Source of the DNA: Piedraia hortae CBS 480.64
Lineage: Eukaryota
Length of the DNA: 64,000 nucleotides
Direction: 5' to 3'
Assembly (NCBI GenBank): GCA_010093745.1
Contig: MU005974.1
Location: 62,001-126,000, forward strand
The notes beneath the pieces were generated by a model that saw only the letters and a list, made by a program, of their open reading frames with translations, was not told the origin of the DNA and searched no databases. This document shows, in pieces, positions 825 through 49,624 of the stretch (within the stretch, counting starts at the first letter, position 1; each line of letters starts with the position of its first letter). The translations under genes were made by a program, and so were the position numbers.

Positions 825-1754
825 TTTGAGCGGTTCTTGGTCGAGGTTTGGGTGGTAGGATGAGCAGAGTATAAAGAAGGGAAATAATGAAGAGGCTTGG
901 GGTGATAGAGATGAAAGGTGGTAAAGGCTGGTGAGAAATTAATGAGCAGTGGTTTGCGTTCGATGGAGATTTCTGCAGTCATTATATACTAATACTTAGC
1001 CCATGGACTGGTTTCGCCTATGACTTCTCTCATTTCAATGATGGGCGTGATCATATGTTCACCCAAGAAATCATTGAACTCATTTCACTTAGGCCTGCCA
1101 TTTATCCAACGATTAGCTTCGATTAGCATCATCAAACTTCCTCCACCACGAGATCATTGGGTTGGTTTACCTACCTAGGTGAATAAAAGGTCCTCCATAA
1201 ATACGATTCACCTGTTCGATATCTTGGAATGCCTGACGTCTCCGCTTACTCGGTCCGGCCCGACCCGCCGCAATTTGACCCCAGAGCATGAATATGTGGC
1301 TGAAGCAGGGCTATGATAGGTGCATGCGCAGTCTCCCTGCGCCCGATAGAAGGCCTGTCTAACTGATGGAACATCTCTTGACTATGCGCAGTTCCCAAAG
1401 CCTATCTCGAACTGCTTGCCAGCTTAAATATATATTCAATCCAATTGTTTATACGGTGTCAAGTCGTCAAACATAGTCAAGGTGGCATAGGCAGAGCTCA
1501 GATGCAACATCTTTGGGCCAGCACCCAATTACGCAAATGAACACAGTATACTGTCATCCGCCTGCACTGCCATAGAGCAAAAATCGCAGATATACGTCAT
1601 GTGTTGAGCCATCAGCTGAGTCCATGCATGCAGACACACTGCGCCACTCCTGAGGATCTAAGCCACAAACGTAAATCCCGAAGCCTACTGACATCTTCCC
1701 TCATCCTGAATCTCCTCGACTTTGGTTCCCGCATACCCATTTACTGTGTTCAGA

Positions 1755-4700
1755 ATGTCCCAATTGATTAGACGCTTGCGGTCGAAGCGGAACTCTCAGA
1801 CCTCGAGTTTACAAGTTTCCACATCACAGGGACCAGCTTTCACTTCCCAGCTTTCACAACATTTGCAGTTACACAATGTGCCTGTTCAGACTCAAGCTAC
1901 CATGGTAGCGTCAAGAAACCCCTTTCAAAACAGGGACCAGTTAATGCTTGATGTCCTTGCCGCTCTTAAGCCTGACGATCGCAAGTTCGTTAAGGAGCAA
2001 CTTCAGTCGAATAGCGGTCTTGTGAGAGACGCAGCTGGTGTCATTGCCTTGAGAGGACAAAACCAAACAAGAAGAAGCAGTCAATGGACTGCCAGGATGA
2101 GGAGAATTGCTGGTCAGATGATGCAATTTGCTTCGGTGTTTGACGTGGCTACGAACGTCCAAGCAGGAATTCTCAGCCTGCCGTGGGCTGGCATCCGCTC
2201 TCTACTGATGGTAAGGCATAAGTGTGTACTTGCAATCCTTAATAACACCAATGCTCCAGGTGGCTCAGAAGTCTCAAGAGCAGAGTGAGTCGATTCTGAA
2301 GGGAGTTGAAACAGTGCTGGATACCAGCTTTCTTCTCAACGCATACTTTGACCTATACAGCAAGCTCGATGGCACGCCCTCGATTGAACATTTGTACAAC
2401 AACATCGTCAAACTATACGGGGTCATTTGGAGATTCTTGGCCCACGCCCATCATACGTGCGATATGAAATGGATAGAGCGTACTATACACTCTTTGACTG
2501 ATGATATTATACCAAACTTCAAAAACGATCACGACGGGATACTGACAACTGTCCAATTCCATATAAAAGCTGTCGACCTCGAAATTTCCGAGGGGCAGCG
2601 GGCTTGGGTCAACGAGCGGTTAATTGCGCTAAAAAAAGCCCAAGAGGAAATCAATGAACGAGTGAAAGACATACAGCAAACGCTAGATCTTGATGCTCTC
2701 CAGATGGCTCCTGGAGCTGCCTACAACTCCATATATTACCACCATCGTGGCCAAAATGGCGAACCACAGTTGTGCTTGGAGGGTACCCGATTACAAATCA
2801 GGCAGAAAGTACTCGACTGGGCCACCAATGCCAATGAACAAAGGGTTTTCTGGCTATCTGGAAAGGCGGGGACAGGCAAATCCACGATTGCTCGTACCAT
2901 TGCTCATGATTTGGACAAACAAGGGTACCTGGTTGGAAGCTTCTTCTTTAAACGCGGTCAGGGCGAATTGGGCCATGTGCGTTGCCTCTTCCCCACTATC
3001 GCCCGACAAATGGCCCAATTCATACCCAGCATCAGAAACCAGATTGCCGATGCCACTCACGGCTTTCCTCCAGTAAAGGAAAGAGCACTGACAAGCCAGT
3101 TCGACAACCTTATCAAAGAGCCACTCTCGGGGTATAATACAGGTCATGCGACAGATGTCAGGGTGATCGTCATCGATGCACTGGACGAGTGCGAGGACTG
3201 GGGAGCAATTGGTAATGCTATAGCTCTCTGGCCGACACTTAGGGCCCATACTTCCATGAACTTGAGGGTGTTTGTGACAAGCCGTACAGACAATAAAGTT
3301 GGTGATAAGCTGAGCAGGTTGGAACACAAGGATCTCCAGCATGAGAGGCTCGAGCTCCTGCAAATGAGCACCATCAAACATGACTTGACAATGCTCTGTC
3401 ATCACGAACTAAAGAAACTTCGCGAAGAGAGCAGGAACGAGTGGAGCTACGATGAGCTAGAAGATTATTGGCCAGGAGAGGTTGTAGTCAACAAACTTGT
3501 GGACATATCCCAGCCACTGTCCATTGCGGCTTCTACAATATTCAGAGAAGTGCGTAACAATCCAAGACAACGTCTCCAAAGATGGGTAGACCGGCTCACC
3601 TTCTCTGGAACGGATGCACTGACCGTAATTTATGCCGACATCTTGGAACAAGCCGCCGACCTTGACAAAGAGTGGCTAATTTGGTTCAACAAGATCATCA
3701 AACCCATCGCTTTCCTGCAGTCCCCGCTAACCATTTCAGCGCTTACAGACCTGCTTGGAGGAGGAGATCTCATGCTTGTTACTAATGCTCTCAAGCCCCT
3801 GAGTCCTGTGATCGATTTTCCAAGTGGCAAAGAGGTGAAAGCGGGCTCGCGGGCCACGGTACGGATCTACCATGAGTCCTTCCGAGACTTCCTCGTGGAT
3901 TCCGATCTCAGGGGAAAATCTCCATTTTGGACTGACAAAGACGAGATGCACGGAGTTCTCCTGAGCAAGTGCACATCATTGCTCCAGAACAGACTATGCC
4001 GCGATATATGCAAACGTAAGAGCCCAGCGGCAGCACGTGAATCCGTCCCACCTGAGCATATCGACAAGCATATTTCTGAGTCAGTAGAGTACGCCTGCTG
4101 CAACTGGGTTCACCATGCAATTCAAAGTCACCAGTCCATTCAAGATGGAGGACAGGTAGATTGCTTTTTGCGCGCATATTTTCTCTCATGGACAGAGTCG
4201 ATGGCTTGGCTGGACAAACTTGGGGAGATGGTATCAAGCCTCAAGCAATTACAGAAGGCAATCGACGTGAGTATCATGCCTTTCATCAACTACGAAGACC
4301 ATAGCTAATTCTGTATAGGCTACATGTTCACCCGAGTTGCACTCATTTGTCGCCGACGCTTTGAAATGGGTACCAGCACATAGAAATATGATCATTAATG
4401 TACCGCTTCAAACCTATCTTTCAGCACTTGCCTTCGCTCCGATCAACAGTATTGTACAAATACCTTTATTCCTGAAATGACCAAATTTTTGCAGGTCTGG
4501 TCGCCAGTCGTGTGTGATTGGAGCTCATTTTTGCAAACATTGAGGTAGCATGCGAGTTGTGTATTACCTATAGCACCTTCGCTAGATGGAAAAAGGCTTG
4601 TAACCTCCACCTGGAACAAAACAGTATGACTGTGGTATATTAAAAGTTGTACCGAAGAAGCATGTTTGGAGGTTAACTCACATGTCATTTCGTCATAAAC

Positions 4701-6309
4701 TTCCGAGGAAGGCCATGTATTGATCGCAAGGTTGGATGGAGAACATTTGAGGTTGAAAGTGGAAGACGACGTCAGACAGGATTGATTGATTGCCTGGCGA
4801 CGCAAATTATCTTTCGGTGTCTCCAAATGGCCGGTTTGCTGGCTAGGGTCTGGCAACTGGTGGAATATACATTTGGAATGTCGACAACGGCACCGGAAAG
4901 GTGCTTGAGGTTCAAATTTCTCCAGTATGGTGCATAACGTTCTCGCCAGACAACGAGACATAGTGTCCGGATCCACAGATATCTGGAGATGGAGCACGGA
5001 AGCTAAGGACGAGAGGATTTGTCAAGTAGGCGAGAAGATCGAACTTATCGCCGTCTCGCGTTACCGCAACTTCGTAGTTCTCTGGTCCGCATTTGGCGCA
5101 GTATCTTTATTCAGCTAGGATACCCAGAGGATTGATCGGATCATGAACATCCTTTAACTGAATCTATTTCGCTTCCTCACGATCACTCCAAACAGCCAGA
5201 GAGTTTTGATCTCAACCAGCCTACAAACCTTCTCGTACATCGTTAAGTCAAGCTCTAGGCCAAGTAAACTGGCCTGACATACCAGCCCTATCATCACGAT
5301 GACATGCTCGTCCGACGAGAAGACTCTCTGGGCCAGCGCTGCTGATGGAACGGTGATACAATTGGATGCGGAACTGAGTTTGAGAAGTCAGCACAGGAGG
5401 ACTAACACCGCGACCGTTGCATTGTCAGCGGATGGTCGATCGATTGCCTCAGTATCTCGACCCAACTAGCTATGTCTTTGGGACACTGAATCTTGGGGTG
5501 CCAAGCTCTCGCACCTTGAACGCTTTCTTAACATCCAATTTACATATTGACCCGTATATGTCGTATGTGTAAATAATTCGATCGTCTGCGGAGGAGCATG
5601 CGCGGATCACGAATGCTTCCCGTTAATTAACGACGAGGCTTGAGTTCGAGGGTTCCATACCCTTGTATGATTGATCGATAGCGACGCAAAATCTCATCCA
5701 TTTGGAGAGAGTACAATATCCTAGACTTTTTTCCGTGTGACCCGTAAAAGTCCCCAGTTGGACACCACTCTTCAATTCACAAGCCCGTACCTGACCATTG
5801 TACAAACCGCAAAAGAGGACTTTGCGGTCTGGGAATTTCGCAAGAGCAAAGATATCACCAGGCCCGTTTTCCATCTCCCTCAATTCATTTGCTTCAAGCT
5901 CTCATATTAAGGCCAGGTTGTCTGGGTGGTGGTATAAGTCGGCAACGACCGTGAAGCGATTGTCGAAGATCCTTATGATGGTTCGATACTCTTCCAGGAT
6001 CGCTTTGTTGATGCACAGTTTCTGCCTTTCCTCCTCATGTTAGAGACCAATGAAACTGATCCGGCTCAAATGCGAACAGATAAGTTGGCATGGATCAAAT
6101 TTCCTTCAATGTTTAGAAAACGCGAAGTTTGGGCCCTAGAACTATTCGATCACAATGGAGGATGGATCACCGCCAATCGTCGGAAGATACTAAAGCTTCC
6201 TCTCTCAGTCAAGCCAGATCGATGGGTCTCGAGTCAGCGGACGATTGTTATTCCGTACAAGGAGACTGGTTTTACCGTGTTTGAATTCATGTTAGATGTA
6301 GAGATATAG
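1755..6309 (+). pseudogene. NACHT-WD40 NLR copy A: N-terminal and NACHT regions open (874 aa if spliced), WD40 half disrupted
   Basis: Exons 1755-2210, 2260-4266, 4319 onward; introns 2211-2259 and 4267-4318. Walker A GKAGTGKST, Walker B VIVIDALDEC. Frameshift near 4457 gives a stop at 4478-4480. The WD40 homology region has further stops (4546, 4627, 4696, 5116, 5467) and an inverted segment at about 5490-5970. The C-terminal remnant (RWVSSQRTIVIPYKETGFTVFEF) matches the other copies. Confidence 0.9.
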
Positions 6310-7313
6310 ATCTCGTGGGTGAGAGTGCACAGCGACCCGAAGAGGACAGAGCGATAGACGGAAGCAGGGACAGGAAAGATGTAGATGTATATGAGTCAAA
6401 AATACCAGTTGCAGCATGGTGGTGTGAATGACTATATTTTTATGAGGGGACTTTCAGAATGAAAATTCTGTACCGGTGGGCCGGTGACGTCACGTCGTAC
6501 ACTAGTGGGGCGTATTCACCATGTCACATATGACATGACCCTGAGGGGAAACCTCTGTGAGGGAAAAACCTAGGGTGCATCTGGTAGTGTAGGAGGTATC
6601 GCTGACTTGCTATGCAAGTGCCCTGCATACGCGCTAGCGGCGATGCTTGAATCCAACATTAGACGCCTGCGTTGGGTAGATAGGGCACTGGAATCTCCAG
6701 GGTTTTACCTTATGGAGGAGGTTTCCCCTCGACCGTGGTTACGTCTAAGGACGTTGTCGCGGCGAATGCAGTTGAGGCCGGAAAGAGAGTCTAGACCAGT
6801 CATGCGGTGCAAGCCTTCTCTAGATTTCAGACGGATTCCATAATGAGGTATCACACACACTGTTGACTGTGTCACCATTCACCAATCTCGAAGTGATATG
6901 AGTAGATCCCTCCCTCCTTCCGATGATTCATGGCTAAAGTGTCTTTTTAGTCCAATGTAGAAAGATTTGAGTTCTGCGAGCTGAAGTCGCTCTGGAAATC
7001 TTCGTGCGATGCTAAGTGTATTGGGGCTAATGACATGAGACGTTTCTGGGATTTCGTTGGGGAGAAGGGTACTTGTTCTCGGGGACGTTGCGTTCAGTTT
7101 CGATGTCTCCACACCCGCTGTCAATCTCTCTATCCGCTTGCACGTAGCATATGTGTTTCACGACGTCACCCGTTAGCTATACATATGCATGCATGCCACT
7201 TTTACCCCACCTCATCAGGCCTCAGCCATGGGCGCAGCGAAGCCTTGCGAGAACTTCTTCCATCCAATATCTCTTCGGCTTGGGCTTTCTCATAACCTCT
7301 TGTTCTGTCCCGG

Positions 7314-10300
7314 ATGCGTGAATTAGCGAGGAACTTCAAAGAGAAGGGGAAGTCTCCGACCTCACGCCTACCAATATCCACTTCACAGGCTTCAGCTTCC
7401 GCCACACAGCCACTCCAATTCTCGCAGCCATACAATGCGCTCATCCCTGTTTCAGCTCCCGTGCTAGTCCCAAGGGTCCCTTTTCGAGATATAAGCCAGT
7501 TGAGACTTGATGCCCTCGTCAGTCTTCCACCTGACGACCATAAGCTCGTTGAGGACCTACTTGGTCCAAACAGTGATTTTTCAAGAGATGCAGCCAGAAT
7601 CCTGGCCTTGAGAGGGCGGAATCAAGCCAAGAAGCCCGACCAGTACATTATCGGCATGAAGAAAATATCTTGTCAGATCATGCAATTTGCAACGGTATTT
7701 GACGTCGCGACGAATGCCCAAGCGGAAGTGCTGAGCTTGCCATGGGCCGGCATTCGCTCTTTACTGATGGTAGGTAGTGATTATATGATTAGATCCCGTG
7801 GTAATAGCATTTCTCCAGATGGCTCAGAGGGCTCACGAGCAGAGTGAGTCGGTCCTAAAGGGAATTGAAACAGCGCTGGACACCAGCTACCTTCTCGACA
7901 CATACTTTAACACATACAGCAAGCTCAATGGCACACCGAGCATTGGACTTTTGTACGACAATGTCGTCAAGCTGTACGGCCTTATTCTGAAGTTCTTGGC
8001 CCATGCCCACAACGCAAGCGATATGAACAGGCTGGAACGCGTGGTACACTCTCTGACCGATGATGTTTTACCCAAATTCAGGGCCGAGCACGATGCAATG
8101 CTGAAGATTGTTCAATCCTATGCGGGAGCTGTCAACCTCGAGGTGTCCGGAAGACAGCGGGTATGGGTTACCAAACAGCTAGAGCTGCTGAGGAAGGACC
8201 AAGAAAATATCAACAAAGGAGTTAAGGGTGTCCAACAAACGCTAGACCTTAGCGCTCTTCCAAGCGTTGACGGAGCAGCTTACAACTCAATAGACTACCG
8301 CAATCGCAACCAGATTGGTGAGTCGCAGTTGTGTCTGCACGGCACCCGGGTGCAGATCAGACAGACAATACTGAACTGGGCCACCACCGCCAATGACCAA
8401 AGGGTGTTTTGGCTATCGGGGAAGGCTGGAACGGGTAAATCCACGATTGCACGAACCGTTGCCCATGAACTGGCAAAACAGGGGTACTTGGTGGGCAGTT
8501 TCTTCTTTAGGCGCGGTCGGGGTGATCTGGACCGAGTGCGTTATCTGCTTCCTACCATCGCCCGCCAAATGGCCGAGTCAATACCCAGCATCAGCCACGA
8601 AATTGCTGCTGCCATTCATGGCGTGCCTCCAGTGGATGAAAGGCCGTTGACCAGTCAATTTGACGCGCTTATCAAAGACCCGCTTTCGGGTTATAATACC
8701 GGGCACGCGACGGATGTCAGGGTGATTGTCATCGACGCTCTTGATGAGTGCGAGGACTGGGGCGCGATTGGTAATGTCATGTCTCTGTGGCCAAAGCTCG
8801 CTGCACATACCTCCATGAATCTGAGAGTTTTTGTGACGAGTCGATCCGACCATAAAGTCGGCGATAAGCTCAGCAGACTGGAGCCCAGTGGCCTTCAACG
8901 CGAGAAGCTTGAGAACCTGCAAACTAGCACGATCAAACAGGATTTGACCTTGTTCTGTAATGATGAACTGAGGAAGCTTCGCGAGGAGAGCAAGAGTATT
9001 TTAAGTCATGATGCGCTAGAGGATGGCTGGCCAGGAGAGATTGTTGTCAATAAGCTTGTTGACATTTGTCAGCCACTGTTCATCGCGGCATCCACGATAT
9101 TCAGAGATGTGAGCAGCAACCCACGACAGCGCCTTCAAAGATGGGTGGATCGACTTAACTTCTGTGATGCTGATGCACTGTCTGTCATTTACTCGGACAT
9201 CCTGGAACAGGCCGCTGATCTTGACAAAGAGTGGCTCAGTTGGTTCAACAAAGTTATCAAACCGATCGCTCTCCTGCAGTCCCCTCTCACCATCTCTGCG
9301 CTGACAGATCTGCTGGGAGGAGGAGACCCCATGCTTGTTACTAATGCCCTCAAGCCTTTGAGTTCAGTCATTGACTTTCCAAGTGGTAAAGAGGTGAAGG
9401 CGGGCTCATGGGCTACGGTGCGGATTTACCATGAATCCTTCAGAGACTTCCTTATGGGATCCAATCTGAAGGGCAAGTCTTCGTTCTGGACTGATGAAGC
9501 AAAGACGCATGGCGTCCTCCTGGGCAAGTGCATAGCGTTGCTGAAACACAAACTTGGCCGCAATGTATGCAAGCAGAATGATCCGGCGGCAGAACAGTAT
9601 TCCCTGCCACCTGAACATGTTGGGAGGTTCATACCAATGGCAGTACAATATGCTTGTCACAATTGGGTCAACCATGCAAGCCACAGCAAGCATAAAATTG
9701 AGGATGACGGACAAGTAGATCGTTTCTTACGCACATGTTTCCTCTTTTGGATAGAAGCAATGGCTTGGCTGGATAAAGTCGGCGAAGTCCTACTAAGCCT
9801 TAGGCAGCTGCAAAAATATATCGAAGTAGGTTTCGTGTCCGCCTATGTCAAAGGTACGGTAGCTGATTCTCCACAGGCAAAGTGCTCATCTGCGGTACGA
9901 TCCTTTGTCGCCGATGCTCTGAGGTGGGTACCAGCACATCGCGAAATTATCAGCGATACACCGCTTCAAACATATCTCTCCGCACTTGCATTCGCGCCCA
10001 GCAACAGTGTTGTGAAAACCAGCGTCGATCATGTTATAGACGATTTTTTGCAAGTTTGGTCGCCAATCACGAGTGACTGGGGCCCCATCTTGCAAAAAGT
10101 GGGTCTATTGGAAGGAGAAAACACAATGGGGAATCAAATCCGGTCGATAGCGCTTTCGACGGATGGCACGAAGCTTGTAACCACTGTCGACGATGGCACA
10201 GTACGACTGATAAACGTTGAAAGCGGTACAGAAGAAGACTGTAAGGAGATTAAGATATGCAGCGTCGCTTCGTTAATCTCTGGACAAAATCTTGCGACAA

Positions 10301-11913
10301 TTGCCGGGCTAGACGGGAGTCTTTGGAAGTGGAAATTGGGGGAAGAACTAAGAAAATTCGATTCGAAGCTTCCTGGCGTGGCAAAATGCGCGTCCGTCTC
10401 TCCGGATGGTCGGGTAGCTGCTTGGGGCCTAGACGATGGCAAGATCTACCTTTTGCATGTCGAAAACAACATCGGAGAGGTAATCCGGGGACACAGTTCC
10501 TCTGTACTGTGCATGAGGTTCTTATCAGATAATGAAACACTACTTTCTGGATCTACAGAGATCTGGAGGTGGTGCACGAAAGCTGGACATGAGAGAGTTT
10601 GTGAGGTAGGCACCAACATCCACGACATTACCATCTCACCGGACGGGAATACTATTGCTTGGTCCGCCGAGCAGATAATATCGGTGTTTCACTGCGACAC
10701 TCATGAAGTTGACCAGATCAAATACAAGGGCAGATCTCCCTCTTTCACGATCACTCCAGACAGCCAGAAGATCTTAATTTCATATCACACAAGCCCGTAT
10801 GGCCCACGCATCCTCCTGTGCGACTTGCGAACGAAATTGAAGCCAATCGAGCTGTACTTGGACCTGCAGGAACTGGGCAACATGACATTCTCACACGACG
10901 GGAAGACGATCTGGGTCGGGAGGTTCGGAGAATCACTGACACAGTTAGACGCAAATCTGGTAATGAAAAGTCGGCAGCAAAGCACCGGCAAGGCCGCTAT
11001 CGCACTGTCAACAGATGGCCAATCGCTCGCGTCATTGTCTCATGATCACCAGCTGAAACTTTGGAGCACGGAAACAAAGGTTTGCAAGCAACGTTTGTCA
11101 GATAAAAGGCTCCTCAAGGTTGCTGGGCCACAAGACAGCGTCATTTTGATCTCGTCAGATAGTCGTTTTGTGGTTGTGGCCGACCTAGACTCATTGAGCA
11201 GTGCTGTGTTCATGTGGAATCTTGAAAAGAATGAATTAAGAGAGCTAGAGCACAGGGCCCAACGAGTGTCTGCTCTTGCAATTTCTCCAGACAACAAAAC
11301 CTTATTGTGCGGCTTTCGTAACGGTTATATTTGGACTATGGATCTAGAAAGTGGCGAACGGCTAAAGTCGTTCACGGGGAACACGATGAGGATCAAACAT
11401 ATTGCGTTTTCTCCAACTGGGCAAGATTTTGCATCGGTATCAGCTGATAGTACAATAAGGATCTGGAGCCCTGAATCACAAACTCCATTGATTTTCGGCG
11501 ACTTGGCCTTTCCCGACACAGCAGCTTTCTCAGCAGGTGGTCGGATGCTTTACTCAGCAGGTCCCCGTCACATCTTCGAATGGGACATTGAAAAGGCGTG
11601 CAAGGTGCGCGCACTTCGCTTGGAAGACCCACAGGGTGGTGGTTTGGTACTCGTCAACGGTCGCTTCATGCCGTCAGCTTTTTTGCCATTCCTGGGGAGG
11701 TCAGAGGCTAATGACGTTGATTCGATATCCGAAAACCAAGAAATCTGGGCCGTGGATTGGCAAAGATGGATAAAAATTGATGGTCGGAATATGTTGATAT
11801 TTGCTGATCCCCTGAAGAGACGCGGTTGGATTTCGTGTGGACGGACAATGGTGTTTCCGAACGATGAGACTGGCTTCACTGTATTGAATTTCACCGGCAA
11901 AACCTCTTTCTAA
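7314..11913 (+). CDS. NACHT-WD40 NLR copy B, intact (HET-E/NWD-like architecture, 1499 aa if both introns are spliced)
   Basis: Exons 7314-7769, 7819-9825, 9877-11913; introns 7770-7818 and 9826-9876. Helical N-terminal domain with LSLPWAGIRSLL, NACHT Walker A/B, HESFRDFL motif, PLQTYLSALAFAP junction motif, then degenerate WD40 repeats (SPDG..., IRIW, LWST). Confidence 0.93.
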
Positions 11914-12266
11914 TCTGTTCGCTCTACAGTTTTATCAAATAGAATAGCGTAAATTCTTATCGAAGCTTAGAACCGCATAAATTGCTTAGCCTATAGCACG
12001 GGAACTTAAAGTTCCATTGCTGACTCACAGCATATCAGTAAGAACAATGGGAAGTAGATGGCTCGGCCGATTTGCAGTTGAGAGGGGCCTTCCAAGAAGA
12101 TCGTGCGCCTATCAGGATGGTTTGGAGGGTCGAAAAACTCGTGGAACAGCCCGTCAGCGAAGCATTGAAAGTTCACACTTCCTTTGTCAAACTCACAAAT
12201 AATAACCCACTCGATAGACTCGCTATTCACCCCCCCCCCCTCAACAAACCTAATCATACAATGCTA

Positions 12267-15200
12267 TCACGGAGCAACCTCAACCGTCAACCCCGCCTCC
12301 GCTTTCCCCTCAGCAACTACACTCATCTCCAATGTACCCGGCACGAGCGGACACACAACAAACTCAACCTCCGTCTCCGACGGACCGAGTAGCTTTCTCA
12401 TTAGCCCCACGACAGTTATCCTTTGATCCGCATCAGCAGGAGGAAGCCTCAACTCCACTTCCCGCGGATTTAGATCATCCTCGCCTCGAATCTGTGTGAG
12501 AAATGCTCTGATAGTCGCATACATTCCTACCTGCACATCGTGGGGACTGACGAGGGAGAGAGTCATCCGCCAAGCCGGGCCTCGGATTGTTTTGATTTGT
12601 GTTTCAGAGAGGACGAGCCCGCTGAGATCTACCTTTCCCTCACACCCGCCTGTCCAGGTCCGCCAGGATACGGAAGTGCGATGGGCTAGTTCTGTGCGGA
12701 GTTCTACTTCGTCTTCGTCGGGGGCTGCGTCCCATCGTTGTATTGTAAGGTTGATACGACGCGTTTCATTGGGTGCTAGTCCGTGTTGCTCGTCACTCTG
12801 GGTCCAGTAGCGTAGGGCAGTAGAGGCGGTGAGGTCGAATGAGACTTGAATTGTTGTTTCGTTTAGATCCGTGATTTCGAGGTCTTGGGCTTGGCAGACT
12901 GAGCCGACGGTGAGTTTTAGTGGGACGACTAGGATGCGTACCCATGCGTCGGTTTTGCTTGGGGGGTTGGGGCGGTAGGAGAGATGGAGGATAGTTTGCG
13001 ATACGCCCATACGGCCTTTGAGACGGAAATGCAGGGTGGTTTTTTCTAGTGGTTGGACGATTGCTAGAGTTCCTTCTTTACGGTCTTCTAGTTGGAGGAT
13101 ATTTCCTGTATCTGCTACTGCGATGATTGCTGCCGGTAGGTGGGGTGTGGTGTTTCGCAGGACCATAGCTACGGCAATATCCTCGCCGTCTAGGAGAGTA
13201 AAGACGGTCTTCTCGTCCGGGGCAGCTAGCTCAAGCAGAGGCATGGCTGGTACGACTTGTACCAGGACAGTGGTGAGTGGTGCGGTAACACTTGAGCCAT
13301 CGCCGGATCGCGCCGCTTGGCCTTGGTGTTTTACGAGTACGCTGGGTCGGGGTGTCCATGGAGTGTTGAAAATATAAAACCTTCTTTTTTCACAGCCTGT
13401 GATTTTTATAACACATCCCGTTATGCTGGCCTCGCCGACTTCGGAGGGGGAGACTTTGAACGACAGCTGCTGGAAACAGCGCGGGCCTAAAGTAGTCGTT
13501 TCGAAAGCAAGAGTTGTGAAATGCACGCCCTTGGACTCAAGTGCTATGCTCTCAATCTCAACAGATATGTCCAGCGGGTTTTGCAATGTAACTACGCATG
13601 TTGGTGATTCGTTACGAACCAGCAGTTGCTTTGCGGGACCCTGGCCCGCGTGCCGTGCGTGAGCATCGTACAGTAGGGGCCCAGCTTGCGCGTGGGTGAT
13701 AAGCGAAGTATTCGTATAAGGAACCAATGCTTGGGCATTGTCTGATGGTGCGAATTCTACAAACCGCACCAAGTAGAGATCCCAATATGCCGCCAAAGCA
13801 TTGACACTCAGATGCTTCGACATTCCTATGGTCCTTAACATTGAGGATGCGTGCTGAGTCTGCTCGTCCCTTGACACTTTATTTGGATATGATTTCGGTC
13901 GTAAGTCTAGGACGGAACCAGGCGTGCACGCTTTCAAGAAGGAGCTTTCCAAGAGTAGGACACCGTCTGGATCGGGGGCAGCTCCGCAAAATGCAGCGAG
14001 CCGCCGCATGACTTCTACCTTGAGCACATCGCTGCCAAAGTCACGGACAGCTGAATTGGTATCTTCGGAAATTAGATTGATGCCGAAGACCTTGGCAAGG
14101 GATTGGGCCAGTTCCTCAGCACCTTGGCTTTCTATAATTTCAGACACTACTGTGTCCGATCCAGATTCGACAGAAAGGCTGGCAGCAGGGTGAATCCCGG
14201 CTTCTGCAGCGCCCAGTTTTCGGGCTTGAGTGAGAGCAGTTGTCAGCTTCGAAACAAGCTCGGCAAGAGTAAGACCTGCTTTCCGTTCCATGTTCAGGGC
14301 AGAGTACACTCCATATATGCCGGTCAAGAGGAGTGTTTGGGTCGTCAGCGGTACCTCATCTTCTTCGGTGGGAAACGCTTCTGAAACTACGGCTGCGATG
14401 GCCGACTTAGACAACACTTCGTTGCCTGACCGACGCTTTGGTTTTTTGGATTCACGCTTCCGTTCTACGAGGAGACTTAGGGCACTCTTGTCCAGCTGCC
14501 CATTCGTATTGATGATAAACGCCATCAGATTACCGAAACGTATCCTTGCTTCTGCTGCAACGATGAATGGAAGCTCTATTGGCCCCTCAGCCGATGCATA
14601 CAATTCCAAAATATGCCTGTAAAGGTCCGGCAAGCATGTCGAAAGTTTTCTTACAGCTGCAAGAACAGTGCTTTCGGATGAAAGTATGCCTGAAAGCCGT
14701 GAAACCTGTGCAGATGCTCTGTCGATGGCTTTGAAGCAAATGGATGGGATGGAAAACTCCACTCCTGCCCAGGTAAGCAACAACATACATACAGCGATCC
14801 CTTCTAAACCTTTGGCATGCCAAAGCTGGTCCGAACTGTGACGAGCAGTGCTGGTATGCTCGACAAACATGCGTAGGGCATCACTCCAATGCCCGGCCAT
14901 CATGTGGATATGAGCCAGAACAATGCCAACACGCGCTTTGCCACGGTCCTTGCCTTTTCCTCCAAACACAGGCGCGCGGTCTTGACTGTTCAGTCGGTTA
15001 TGATCCTTGGAGCGGTTACTGGCGACACTACTGGAGCGTGGAGGTGTTCCAGCAAGATGGTGTGCCGCCGAAGAGGAACGTGGCGGGGAGTGAACTCCAC
15101 GAGTTGCCACCGAAGAGGTGCGTGGCGGAGAATGGATACCACGAGAAGATGGTCGAGATCCGTTTGGGCTTCCTGTCTCTTGAGTAGATGTATTGGTTCC

Positions 15201-44219: not shown

Positions 44220-45033
44220 GGAGTTCTTTTTTCGGTTGTTTTCATTCTGACATATGTAAACAGACTAGCATGGACATGCGTGTTATGACATATCTTTTTA
44301 GCATGGCAACGAATGTCAAGTTCTATGTATTGTGGCTCATTTCTGTCGCTTTAGCTGGTCACAGGGATGAAAGCTTCACGTTAACCCACAAAGTGCGAAC
44401 TTTCTGACTTAGTGGGCTAAGCCTTGCTTCCAATTGTCCGTGGCTTGGAAAGCCTTTTAGAATCCTCGCAAAACACATGCAGTTCCGTCGATTGTCGAGC
44501 TACACGACAGTGCAGCGTTATCGTAAAAGTCTTTCCCTAAAGCTTTACAAGCTAGTAAACCCACACACAGCCATCTCATAACTGTAAATTTTGATATAAA
44601 ATTCCCCTGGGGCAGAGTGCGGTCCGGGTCGTCCCGGACATTGGGTAGCCTTGGCGCTCAATTCTTTCACCCCACTTCCTTGCCGTTCCTAGTCACGGAA
44701 CCACACACACTATTGACCGCTTTCACCTTTCACCAGATCGAAATGATGTGAGTAGATTCCTCCCCCCGTTCGATTATCATTCCCTATCTCCCTGTGTCTC
44801 AATGAGATGAAAGCCAAATGAAACCGGTTGTTTTGAGATAGGTATCTCTCTCCTCGTGTCCAAGTGACTGCTGGAATGTTTTGAGACGGGATCGTGGTCT
44901 TCATGCTCTAGGGTTGGTTGCGTGCATACATGCAAGCCACTTTTACCCCACTTAATCGGACCTCAGCGTCGTACGCAACTCTAGAGACAGATAGTTTCCC
45001 TTCATCTTTCTCTAATCATTCCTAAACTTTGCC

Positions 45034-48000
45034 ATGCCCAGCATGCCTGAATGGATGGGGCGCTTGAAATTGAAGAGTAAAATGCAGCCATTTTCCACTT
45101 CAAATGCCGCCACTTCACAGCTTTCAACTCCAATCCCACAGGCCGCGCATTCCACTCCACAGCCTTCCCAATCTTTTCAGCTACACAGCACGCCTGTCCA
45201 TGCTTCAGTTGCAGTGGTAGCTCCAAGCAACCCCTTTCGAAAGAAGAGCCAGTTGATGGTTGATGCCCTAGCCAAGCTTCCCTCCGACGATCGTAAGTTT
45301 GTTGAGGGGCAACTGGGTCCAAACAATGATGTGGCAAGAGATGTAGCTAGAATCATGGCCCTAAGAGGACGAAACCAAAGTAAACGGTCCAACCAGTATA
45401 TTGTCGGGATGAAGAAGGTTGCATGCCAGATCATGCAATTTGCGCCGGTATTAGACGTCGCAACAAATATCAAAACAGAGGTCCTTAGCCTGCCGTGGGC
45501 CGGCATCCGCTCTCTCCTGATGGTATGTATCTATGATGTAGTGTCAACCTTGAATATCACCAGTTCTAGGTGGCCCAGATGTCACAAGAGCAGAGTGAGT
45601 CAATCTTGGAGGGGGCCGAAATTGCGCTCGACACAAGCTACCTTCTCAACGTATACTTTGACGTATACAATCGACTCAATGGGTCGCCCACAATAGGTCA
45701 TCTGTATGACAATATTGCCAAACTATACGGGCTCATTTTGATATTCTTGGCACACGCGCAAAGCACATCCCATGCGAGAGCTGTCAATTTTGAGGCATCC
45801 GAGGAGCAGCGAATTTGGGTTAATGAACAGTTGGAAGAGCTTAAGAAGGCCCAGAGAGAGATCAATGATGGGGTTCAGGGCGTACAACGGACACTGGATC
45901 TAAGTGCTCTCCCCTCGGCCACCGGGGCAGCTTACAACTCCATAGACTACCGCAATCATGGCCATAATGGCGAACTGCAATTGTGTCTGAGCGATACACG
46001 GATCTGTATCAGACAGACTATTCTGAATTGGGCTACCACCGCCAATGATCAACAAATATTTTGGCTGTCTGGGAAAGCTGGAACGGGCAAATCCACAATT
46101 GCGCGAACTGTTGCCCATGAACTGGCGAAACAAGGATACTTGGTGGGAAGCTTCTTCTTTAAGCGCGGCCAGGGTGAACTCAGCGATGTGTGTAGCCTGT
46201 TCCCCACCCTGGCCAGACAAATGGCCGATTCAATACCTACCATTAGCGACAAAATTGCTGCCGCCTCCCACGGCTCACCTCCTGTAAAAGAAAGGCCATT
46301 GACAAGCCAGTTCGACACGCTTGTCGAAGAGCCACTTTCGGGGTACAGCACGGGTCTAGCGACAGATGTCAGGGTAATTGTAATCGATGCTCTCGACGAG
46401 TGCGAGAACTTGGAAGCAATAGGTCATGCCATGACTTTTTGGCCAAAACTCGGTGCCCACACTTCCATGAACTTGAGGATTTTCGTGACGAGCCGGTCGG
46501 ACATCAACATCGGGGCTAAGCTCGGTCAGCTCGGGTCGAGATACCTCCATCATGAGAGGCTTGAACACTTTCAAAGGGATACTATCAAGCATGACTTGAC
46601 AATGTTCTGTCACGATGAGCTGCGGAAGCTTCGCGAGGCGAGCAGGAATGACTTGAGCTATGATGAACTAGAGGATGATTGGCCAGGAGAAGTCGTTGTT
46701 AACAAACTTGTTGACATATCTCAGCCACTGTTTATCGCGGCATCCACGATATTCAGGGAAGTGAGGAACAATCCTCGAAAGCGGCTTCGAGAATGGGTCG
46801 ACCGGCTCAACTTCACTGAAACGGATGCACTGACCGTGATTTACTCTGATATTCTGAAACAAGCCGCTGATCTCGACAATGAGTGGCTCCAATTGTTCAG
46901 TCAAATCATCAAACCAATCGCCCTACTGAATTCCCCACTCACCATTCCGGCGCTAACATACCTGTTCGGAGAAGGAGACGACATGGCCGTCCCTAATGCT
47001 CTTAAACCTTTGAGTTCAGTGATTGAATTTCCAAGCGGGAAGGAGGTGAAGGCGGGTATCCAGGCTCCGGTACGGATATATCACGAATCCTTTCGTGACT
47101 TCCTTGTGGGTTTCAATGACAGAGGCCGACCTCAATTCTGTATTGACAAAGGAGAGACACACGGTTTTGTCCTGCGCAAATGCATAGACTTGCTCCAAAA
47201 AATGCTAGGCCGCGATGTGTGTAAACTAAAAGATCCCGGGACAGAACGCAAAGCCGTGTCAGCCGAGCATATCCAAAGACACATCCCAGAGTCAGTGCAG
47301 TACGCATGTTGTAATTGGGTTAGTCATGCAATTCACAGCAATCAGACAATTCAAGATGATGGACAGGTCGATCGTTTCTTGCGCACATGTTTTCTTTTCT
47401 GGGCAGAGGCAATGACATGGCTGGAAAAGCTCGGGGAAATGATATTGAGCCTGAAGCAGTTGCAAAAAGCCATCGATGTAAGTATCGTGCTCATTTTGAC
47501 AGAAGAGAGTCTCATTGACTTCACACAGGCGAAATGCTCACCTGGGTTGCAATCACTTGTTGCCGATGCTCTGAGATGGGTGCCAGCACATCGGATTATG
47601 ATGAGCGATGAGCCTCTTCAACATATATCTCAGCACTGGCCTTTGCGCCGAGCAAAAGTGTTATTCGAAGCATCTTCAAACATGAGATGGAGGACTTCTT
47701 GCTAGTCTGGCCACCAGTCACAACCAATTGGGGTCCTAAGTTGCAAACTCTGAGGGGGCATGCGGAGGCCATATTGAAGATAAAGCCTTCAACCGACGGG
47801 AAAAGGCTGGTGAGCACATCCCGGGATCGAACAGTACGATTGTGGGACATTGAAAGCGGGACCGAGGAATGGCGTGTGAAGGTTGCATCATACAAATCAA
47901 CGTCATCAATCTCTGAAAAAGGCGTTGTACTCATTGCTGGCTTCAACGGAGAATTATTGAAATGGAGTTTGGAAGAGGGAGTCAACCGAGTTGACTTGAA

Positions 48001-49624
48001 ACTGCCCGACACTGCATATTGCGTTTCAGTCTCTCCAAAAGGCCGATACTCTGCCTGGGGCCTAGGCAGAGGCGGGATCTTTATAAAGGATGTTGACAAC
48101 GACACCGGAGAGTTAATCAAATGCCACAATTCTACAGTGCGTTGCATGGTGTTCTCGACGGATAACGAGTTGTTTTCTGGATCTACGGAGATCTGGAGAT
48201 GGAGCACAGAAGCCGGGAATGAAATGATCTGCCAAGTAGGTTCTGACGTTGAATTCCTCGCCGTTTCACCGAATAGCAACCTCATCGTGTTTTGGACCTC
48301 AACTAGCCTTGGGTCTTCAGCTGGCTCGCGGGAATCCTCCTTTTCGTCCCATCTTGGCACGGTCTTGGTATGTCGATGCGATACTCGAGACGTAGAGTGG
48401 GTAATGGAATTGAAAGTGCAGTCATTCTGCTTTTTCACAATAACTCCAGATAACCAGCAGGTTTTGATTTCAGCTGGCGAAGATGTTTTCCTGTACGACT
48501 TCGAAACCAAACGTAAGCCAAGGATTGTGTTTTCAGAACGCATTTACAGAACGACTATGGCATTCTCGCCCGACGGAAAATCAATCTGGGCTGGTGATGT
48601 TGATGGGTCGGTGATACAACTGGACGCCGAGTTGGCAATGCGGAGTCAGCTGCACCGACCAGGAACTGCTATTATATCATTGTCAACGGATGGCCGGTCG
48701 CTCGCCTCATGGCCTCCGGGAAACCAGCTCAGTCTTTGGAACACTGAAACGCAGGTTTGCAAACAATGGTTATCAGACGAAAGACTTTCAAATTTGTCAG
48801 ATCGCCTCCTGCTGATCTCATCAGACAGTCGTTTCGTGGTTGCTGCCAACCTGTCCACACCCTCAGACAATGCGGTATTGATATGGGACCCTGAAACAAC
48901 TTCATTGAGACAGCTAAGACACAAGCTAGGTCACATTTCAGCTCTGACAATATCTCCAGACAGCGAAATACTCTTTTGCGGCTTGTCTGACGGCCAAATC
49001 TGGACCTTTGAACTGAAAAGTGGCGCCCGGTCCAAGACGTTCCTGGGGCATACGAGCTGGATCAGAGAGATTGTGTTCTCACCCAACGAGCGAGACTTTG
49101 CATCGGTATCATCTGATGACACAACAAGAATTTGGAATATTCACAAGCAAGATCCGTTGCTGCTAAGCGAAGATGACTTTGCGCTGCCCGTATCTTTCTC
49201 CGCAGACGGTCAGAAGCTATACAAATTTGACGACTGCAATGCCGTATATGAATGGGACATTGAAGAAGCGAGCATAACGCGAAAACTTGATGCGACGAAT
49301 TTAACGGCTTATTATGGATCGATACTCTTCAACGGTCGATTTGTGCATGCATCTTATCTGCCAGTCCTGCGCACCATAGGGGCCAATGAAGTTGATCTGA
49401 CTCAGACGCGGGCAGATTCCTTGGTAACGTTTCGGGAACGCGACTTTTTGGTCCTGCAGTTATATCTTTACAGTGGATGGGTCACTGTTGACGGTCGGAA
49501 TACATTCAAGCTCCCGTTTCCGCTGTGCCAAGACAATTGGATCTCGTGCGGGCGAACGATTGTTGTTCCCAACGTTGAGACTGGTTTTATAGTATTAAAA
49601 CTCACGGGCAAAATCTCTTTTTAA
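45034..49624 (+). pseudogene. NACHT-WD40 NLR copy C, split by a single 1-bp frameshift (possibly a sequencing error)
   Basis: Introns 45523-45569 and 47478-47528. CTTCAACATAT at about 47616-47626 versus CTTCAAACATAT in copy B. Upstream frame stops at 47705; the WD40 frame 47687-49624 is fully open. Exon 2 is 99 nt shorter than in copies A and B. Confidence 0.88.

Follow-up and report, generated by a model that had tools for sequence, protein, structure and literature searches.

We analyzed a 64,000-nt stretch of the genome of the fungus Piedraia hortae CBS 480.64 (assembly GCA_010093745.1, contig MU005974.1, positions 62,001 to 126,000 of the forward strand), hereafter the window, for the copies of an NLR-like gene whose full-length form combines an N-terminal DUF7708 domain, a NACHT NTPase and a C-terminal WD40 half. 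Positions are those of the window, which holds three copies only:

1755-6309, + strand: copy A, the tandem sister of copy B
7314-11913, + strand: copy B, the full-length intact sister paralog, 1499 aa (P0125), with an open reading frame (ORF)
45034-49621, + strand: copy C, a further paralog that served as third taxon

Copies A and B lie on the same strand, head to tail with ~1 kb between them, and A arose as the tandem sister of B. Copy A, the subject of this study, combines an open 5' half with a decayed WD40 half. Its exon-2 ORF is 100% identical to P0005, an 874-aa hypothetical protein of P. hortae CBS 480.64, and a truncated product of copy A is already present in the public annotation under that entry.

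The two halves of copy A

Copy A begins at an ATG (1755) homologous to that of copy B (7314) and is composed of the following features:

1755-2210, + strand: exon 1, 456 nt, coding for a disordered N-terminus and the start of DUF7708; length as in B
2211-2259, + strand: intron 1, 49 nt, GT..AG, skipped in a cDNA contig (word depth 203)
2260-4266, + strand: exon 2, 2007 nt, coding for the rest of DUF7708, the NACHT/NPHP3_N NTPase and a helical region (winged helix plus arm)
2860-2886, + strand: Walker A motif or P-loop, GKAGTGKST, aa 353-361, in nearly invariant columns of an 83-sequence alignment
3163-3192, + strand: Walker B motif, VIVIDALDEC, aa 454-463, from the translation
4267-4318, + strand: intron 2, 52 nt, GTGAGT...CTAAT...TAG, skipped in a cDNA contig (word depth 226)
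4319-4416, + strand: exon 3 as far as it is kept in the mRNA, up to the site of poly(A) addition; 98 nt (32 codons)
4415-4417, + strand: codon TAT (exon 3 codon 33), of which TA plus poly(A) would read UAA
4417-6309, + strand: decayed WD40 remnant, from a frameshift-aware alignment to the B protein and from tblastn
4478-4480, + strand: TGA ending the conceptual and annotated 874-aa ORF, following a 1-nt deletion near 4460-4470
5503-5964, - strand: inverted 462-bp WD40 segment corresponding to aa 1249-1401 of B, from tblastn and from blastn against C

An initial annotation made from the letters alone had described the 5' half as open and intact at its splice sites and Walker motifs, with exon lengths equal to those of copy B, and each of these points is borne out. 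The 821 codons of this half hold no stop, and relative to B no frameshift, insertion or deletion; the codon alignment of A and B has no gapped column among 832. The exons of B (7314-7769 and 7819-9825) measure the same 456 and 2007 nt, both introns of A keep GT..AG ends and are skipped in cDNA contigs, and intron 2 has homologues at the same place in B (51 nt) and in C. Within the Walker B motif D458, A459, D461 and C463 are invariant in all 83 aligned sequences, and the conserved winged-helix His690 is also intact. The conceptual ORF continues for 53 codons into exon 3, crosses the 1-nt deletion near 4460-4470 and so yields the 874 aa of P0005.

Searches of P0005 against Pfam recovered DUF7708 (31.1 bits, cut-off 25) at aa 116-246, and both NPHP3_N (PF24883, 102.8 bits, cut-off 24.8) and NACHT (PF05729, 31.6 bits, cut-off 26.7) within aa 333-524. 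No WD40 match was found on P0005, and in B WD40 propellers are present in addition to the domains found in A. An AlphaFold2 model of A built from the 83-sequence alignment (mean predicted local distance difference test score, pLDDT, 78) consists of disordered residues 1-52 (pLDDT <50), an all-helical N-terminal domain at ~55-300 and a NOD module. With VIA-align, residues 318-874 match MalT (8bob, Z 15.4), NRC2 (8rfh, Z 14.5) and Dark (8y6p, Z 13.0), as well as the WD40-less Apaf-1 structure 1z6t (Z 13.3 over 430 residues, root-mean-square deviation 6.7, 14% identity). By its domain scores, its Walker A and B motifs and its modelled NOD fold, copy A encodes a NACHT NTPase of the STAND/NLR type. 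Lacking the C-terminal repeat domain that is the sensor of a tripartite NLR, its product is NLR-derived and not a tripartite NLR.

The N-terminal domain was queried within the whole model, where the structure search is dominated by NOD matches. Its nearest atlas clusters carry DUF7708, with Goodbye or NACHT_N in 10-23% of their members, which we take only as a lead; in the atlas structure search its template-modelling scores stay below 0.5 throughout. Goodbye-like domains, according to the available text of PMC9815663, have a four-helix-bundle core in common with MLKL and HeLo, their cell-death activity being unproven.

The WD40 half presents a wholly different picture, and its damage is heavier than the frameshift, five or more stops, deletion and inversion first described. 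The remnant carries 12 in-frame stops (at 4546, 4627, 4696, 4787, 4844, 5116, 5155, 5275, 5467, 5904, 5723 and 5696), five frameshifts (near 4469, 4780, 4961, 5733 and 5618), a 24-codon deletion revealed by the frameshift-aware alignment to B, and the inverted segment, at whose breakpoints no long or convincing inverted repeat was found (the best nearby is 16 nt at 81%). A test of the distribution of lesions, which the initial annotation had proposed, places none of the 17 point lesions in the 5' half and all of them in the 3' half; were lesions to fall uniformly, the chance of all 17 lying in the 3' 1893 nt of 4454 nt would be P = 4.8e-7.

Repeat-induced point mutation (RIP) or local hypermutation was considered as the cause of the 3' decay and rejected, since the indices are ordinary (TpA/ApT 0.63; (CpA+TpG)/(ApC+GpT) 1.21 in the 3' half) and the A branch is not inflated (total 3'-half branch lengths 1.50 in A, 1.69 in B and 1.60 in C). 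In A as in B, 30% of all changes are C>T or G>A.

On the minus strand of the remnant, a contig of depth 3.5 skips 52 nt at 4629-4682, the CT..AC ends of which are those of a minus-strand GT..AG intron, and a 192-codon minus-strand ORF spans 4443-5021. The skip suggests a spliced antisense transcript across the WD40 remnant.

Beyond the window, at least 28 further P. hortae proteins match the copy A region at 54-70% identity, and the best matches outside the species reach ~33-35%; judged from these identities, the family is a species-specific expansion. Copy C also carries some damage. One nucleotide is missing at ~47619, shortly after the start of exon 3, and an in-frame deletion removes 99 nt from the N-terminal domain; its downstream 670-codon WD40 ORF is nevertheless open throughout. 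The annotated C protein (P0138, 1426 aa) diverges from the genomic reading around 47300-47405, and the lesion could be a very recent one, a sequencing error or a mis-modelled intron. The neighbors of the three copies in the window are housekeeping genes, among them those for Trs120, Sey1, a tuberin-like RapGAP, ABC transporters and PUF proteins.

The transcript of copy A and its 3' end

Transcription was assessed in the assembled contigs of one public sequencing run (X1), the RNA label of which is a guess. X1 contains 0.90 of the sampled words from 1700-6400, and its contigs were compared with 1000-12500. They skip exactly the predicted GT..AG introns (2210/2260 and 4266/4319 in A; 7769/7819 and 9825/9877 in B), and X1 therefore contains cDNA. 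Copy B is represented by a single 4939-nt contig with both introns spliced. Over copy A, contigs cover 1771-3270 (1771-2209 within exon 1) and 3371-4266, continue with 98 nt of exon 3 and end in 22 A. Absence of expression would have spoken against a retained gene; copy A is transcribed, with both of its introns correctly spliced. Contig depths are ~170-265 over the exons of A and 37.6 over B, figures from contigs that can neither rank genes nor give expression levels.

As the genome has T at 4417, the 22-A tail after 4416 is a real poly(A) tail and not the outcome of internal priming on a genomic A run. Word depth drops from 173 (bin 4072-4455) to 5 (bin 4456-4839), and the WD40 remnant is covered solely by unspliced contigs of low depth (5-10). 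The 3' end of the main mRNA of copy A thus seems to lie at 4416, before any of the lesions, and 1755-4416 is free of stops and frameshifts. With TA at the cleavage site, addition of the poly(A) tail would create a UAA stop and an 853-aa product ending in ...NVPLQT; as read from the frame and this one contig, 853 aa is the more likely length of the product than the annotated 874 aa.

Within the last eight codons before the poly(A) site (4379-4402), A reads HRNMIINV and B reads HREIISDT, and the changes specific to A make this stretch AT-rich (AGAAATATGATCATTAATGTA). Its composition is consistent with a gained polyadenylation signal.

The regions upstream of B and C have two blocks in common, one of 77 nt at 80.5% (6852-6927 vs 44702-44777) and one of 42 nt at 85.7% (7185-7226 vs 44926-44967). 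These were not found in the region upstream of copy A, where the closest match covers 60 nt at 68% (E = 0.15), and the promoter of A may have diverged from those of B and C.

Directly 3' of the relic of A, contig word depth rises to 2000-4143 at 5992-6759 (core about 6296-6658), against 5-10 in the flanks. Several loose ends lie at 6657-6660 and another before 6296; 6658 is joined to 12224 through 26 intervening letters of other sequence, and 6390-6447 is skipped with AT..AG ends. An Rfam scan of 5800-7400 gave no match at E <= 0.1, and no repeat of the 5992-6759 region was found elsewhere in the window. This region could correspond to an abundant unannotated RNA or to a dispersed element.

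Constraint, timing of decay and exchange between paralogs

Constraint was estimated by maximum likelihood with a purpose-written codon model of the Goldman-Yang type on the three-copy tree of A, B and C, using 788 codons of the 5' half and 570 codons of the 3' half, the latter with 10 aligned stops. In the 5' half, the A branch has an omega (dN/dS) of 0.228, which does not differ significantly from the 0.258 of B and C (p = 0.53), and omega = 1 on A is rejected (twice the log-likelihood difference, 2dlnL, 55.4; p = 1e-13). The dN/dS of 0.23 in the NACHT half of A is far from the value of ~1 that the initial annotation had named as counting against selection. Lineage-specific differences in the 5' half number 276 in A, 267 in B and 272 in C, with the same codon-position pattern, and in the 3' half 303, 254 and 240, respectively. 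In a FastTree protein tree of 29 family members and 3 outgroups, the 5' half of A is sister to that of B (support 0.976), with terminal branches of 0.223 and 0.221. Among highly conserved columns, 13 of 253 in A and 18 of 265 in B differ from the family consensus, and A falls inside the range of 19 paralogs that form the full-length reference set (6/257 to 23/268), some annotated models of which are without the N-terminus. The DUF7708-NACHT-helical half of A equals those of B and C in rate and constraint.

Because the A branch is long, we fitted a two-phase model, in which the sequence first evolves under function and then, for a length tau, neutrally over all 64 codons. The fit gives the 3' half a tau of 0.48 (support interval about 0.25-0.75), in neutral substitutions per codon, and the 5' half a tau of 0, the log-likelihood being down by 2.0 at 0.08 substitutions per codon, and one tau for both halves is rejected (2dlnL 19.7, 1 degree of freedom). 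The WD40 half of A kept its function over roughly two thirds of the A branch, after which it turned neutral. Relaxed constraint, in the form of an omega near 1 or an accelerated branch, is absent from the 5' half and is seen in the 3' remnant only. A 5' half left to neutral change for a tau of 0.48 would be expected to hold 8.05 stops, the probability of none being 2.7e-4 (9e-3 at the lower bound of 0.25); likewise, the density of frameshifts in the 3' half predicts ~7 in the 5' half, where there are 0.

It is against these figures that copy A must be judged as a possible ordinary pseudogene in mid-decay, inactive as a whole once the WD40 half broke, its 5' ORF open by chance and its transcription residual promoter activity. 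Such a fate would be commonplace: pseudogenized NLR paralogs are common in fungi, at least in the available text of PMC13449251, copy C in the same window is also frameshifted, and transcription of pseudogenes often persists. However, it would require the two halves to have had the neutral time in common that the model rejects, and both the expected stops and the expected frameshifts to be missing by chance. It also sits poorly with an omega on A equal to that of the intact copies, with a branch length equal to that of B, and with an mRNA that ends before the first lesion, leaving a transcribed region without a disrupted frame. We therefore regard it as improbable.

The openness of the 5' half would be uninformative about selection if, once the 3' half had decayed, an intact paralog had renewed this half through gene conversion or recombination. 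Exchange within the family seems real: in the tree of the WD40 half C is the partner of the A remnant (0.904) and B lies in a different large clade (1.0), so that the two halves of B fall in different clades, and this conflict with the 5'-half tree suggests an old domain-level recombination between family paralogs. Overwriting of the 5' half by a neighbor had also been raised by the initial annotation as an event that would undo its inference. No recent conversion tract was found in A among B, C and the annotated paralogs: nucleotide identity to B or C is at most 0.84 in any 200-nt window, and A and B share no identical stretch longer than 18 nt. On these grounds we reject a recent conversion from either B or C. 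A search of the protein database yielded no candidate donor, the closest protein to the 5' half of A being B at 70% identity. Moreover, measured from any shared ancestry, the A branch in the 5' half has a length of ~1.4 neutral substitutions per codon, well above the 0.25-0.75 of the 3' neutral phase, and any conversion thus predates the death of the sensor. A later refreshment of the 5' half is accordingly the least probable of the explanations weighed here.

Together, these comparisons indicate that the 5' half of A was probably kept by selection after the WD40 half had died. The proposal that a truncated product was retained is upheld by the omega of 0.23 and by the rejection of equal decay times; the part of it that gives way is the length of 874 aa. 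At a probability of about 0.7, we consider copy A to be a NACHT-WD40 NLR-like gene that has lost its sensor but continues to be maintained and expressed, and not a uniformly decaying pseudogene.

Several points weigh against this conclusion. The case for selection is drawn from one genome, no ortholog or second isolate having been found in the protein database. The branch is long, with a pairwise neutral divergence of ~0.9 per site, near saturation; the upper bound of 0.08 substitutions per codon on the 5' neutral phase is above zero and compatible with a recent relaxation. The comparison for conversion covers annotated paralogs only and is compatible with an unannotated donor. The poly(A) end comes from one contig of a single run with a guessed RNA label, and assembled contigs can give neither transcript levels nor true ends. 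The cDNA begins at 1771, 16 nt past the annotated ATG, so that the start codon lies outside the contig; the next in-frame ATG is at 1899 (M49), after an out-of-frame ATG at 1876. The product of copy A is known from DNA and cDNA contigs alone, and the mechanisms discussed below draw on general STAND biology.

Possible roles of copy A and known systems

The product, at ~853 aa, would comprise an effector-like N-terminal helical domain, a nucleotide-binding domain (NBD) and a helical arm. Given the conservation of its P-loop, Walker B motif and winged-helix His, it probably binds and switches on nucleotide, and nucleotide-dependent assembly is probably retained as well. In STAND proteins the repeat domain senses the ligand and holds the NOD closed; having lost this domain, copy A probably works without a ligand. 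The initial annotation had suggested that A could serve as a helper, decoy or dominant regulator of B. We tentatively propose that A might co-assemble via its NOD with full-length paralogs, of which B is the closest, and thereby tune their signalling, in which case dampening would be likelier than triggering.

An autonomous role appears about as likely as such modulation: A would then be a retained sensor-less protein acting alone, as an effector or adaptor that is constitutively prone to assemble or is regulated in some other way, in a new role unrelated to B or to other full-length paralogs. This accords with the nucleotide-switch motifs and family-conserved residues, which A keeps to the same degree as intact paralogs and of which an inert decoy would need none. 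The two upstream blocks common to B and C are lacking in A, suggesting separate regulation, and the A/B arrangement is head-to-tail, not that of a head-to-head pair. Three further proteins, P0007, P0010 and P0012, scattered over the tree, also end at the exon 2/3 boundary, but these short paralogs may be gene models cut short at lesions. Moreover, if the Goodbye-like domain kills cells, an activity unproven in the available text of PMC9815663, the open form should be toxic, yet it is expressed. Taken singly, an autonomous role is possible though rather unlikely.

With A, this makes at least four paralogs of different clades that stop at the junction of exons 2 and 3. P0007 (956 aa), P0010 (797 aa) and P0012 (566 aa) belong to different clades, end at or beside this boundary and are without WD40; P0007 reads into the position of intron 2, and P0012 terminates early in exon 3, in a shifted frame. 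Their departures at conserved columns are 23/234, 13/241 and 14/202, respectively. It is conceivable, though we think it unlikely, that conversion of NACHT-WD40 genes into expressed sensor-less NOD proteins is recurrent and selected, with premature polyadenylation in exon 3 producing stoichiometric regulators of the full-length receptors. If true, truncated inhibitory helper NLRs, as found in plants, would have a fungal equivalent in these recurrent short forms. Homologs of ~680 aa from metagenome and run assemblies were also considered as sensor-less relatives and set aside, as they are most likely single-exon ORF calls (the exon-2 ORF of A is itself 697 aa).

To our knowledge, fungal genomes hold hundreds of NLR-like genes, almost none of known function, and for truncated ones a gene-model error, a dying gene and a working protein can rarely be told apart. 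Copy A is unusual among truncated NLRs in that the dead sensor is still attached and serves as an internal clock that dates the truncation. By this clock, full constraint on the effector-NOD half would have lasted for at least about five sixths of the period that has passed since the sensor died. Copy A would thus be a clean natural case of an NLR turned sensor-less protein, and with its intact sister B it makes a concrete pair for testing a sensor-less NOD in a fungus. Fungal catalogues list many NLR-like genes that miss the C-terminal domain (available text of PMC12258605). Truncated NLRs are already known in fungi and, as regulators, in plants, and A adds one case; no selection analysis of a truncated fungal NLR was found in searches of the open-access literature.

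The putative poly(A)-completed stop of A has parallels of a different kind. In nuclear genes of Blastocystis, a U or UA at the cleavage site together with the poly(A) tail makes UAA (available text of PMC4159000), and stops completed by poly(A) also occur in mitochondrial mRNAs; copy A is a single fungal nuclear gene, read from one contig. Here the completed stop seems to have arisen by accident, when a new poly(A) site formed within an old coding exon, and not as a genome-wide habit; as such it would show a new 3' end rescuing a truncated gene.

The closest relatives in architecture are the fungal NACHT-WD40 genes (NWD/HNWD; HET-E, HET-D and NWD of Podospora anserina), which have the same parental order of an N-terminal effector-type domain, NACHT (NPHP3_N/T-NACHT) and WD40. 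As with the Podospora NWD genes, pseudogenization is frequent, and the P. hortae family is a lineage-specific expansion. It differs from them in its N-terminal domain, which is DUF7708 (Goodbye/NACHT_N-like by atlas features) and not HET, and in that its WD40 repeats are not highly internally conserved. Podospora NWD pseudogenes are RIP-mutated with WD40 repeats nearly intact, at least as described in the available text of PMC13449251; copy A shows the opposite asymmetry, with the WD40 half destroyed and the NACHT half kept, and without a RIP signature.

Like plant sensor/helper pairs, to which the initial annotation had likened them, A and B are adjacent related NLR genes, one of which has an atypical architecture. 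The analogy fits poorly beyond this point, as A and B are head-to-tail ~1 kb apart, with no common promoter and no integrated decoy domain; A is also without the upstream blocks of B and C. Head-to-head pairs are described as rare in Sordariales, where they make up 13 of 225 two-gene clusters (available text of PMC12258605). Another plant parallel is NRG1C, a truncated NLR that antagonizes its neighbors NRG1A and NRG1B (available text of bioRxiv 10.1101/2021.01.27.428547). Like NRG1C, copy A is a truncated paralog that lies beside full-length relatives and is retained and expressed. However, NRG1C is truncated N-terminally and keeps its repeats, whereas A is truncated C-terminally and keeps the effector-like domain and NOD; the NOD families also differ (NB-ARC in NRG1C, NACHT in A), and the likeness is one of gene arrangement, retention and expression.

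In domain content, A matches 1z6t, comprising Apaf-1 residues 1-591, which has an effector domain, NBD, helical domain, winged helix and second helical domain without repeats. Apaf-1 becomes ligand-independent without its WD40 repeats. The difference is that 1z6t is a laboratory construct, whereas copy A is a natural gene.

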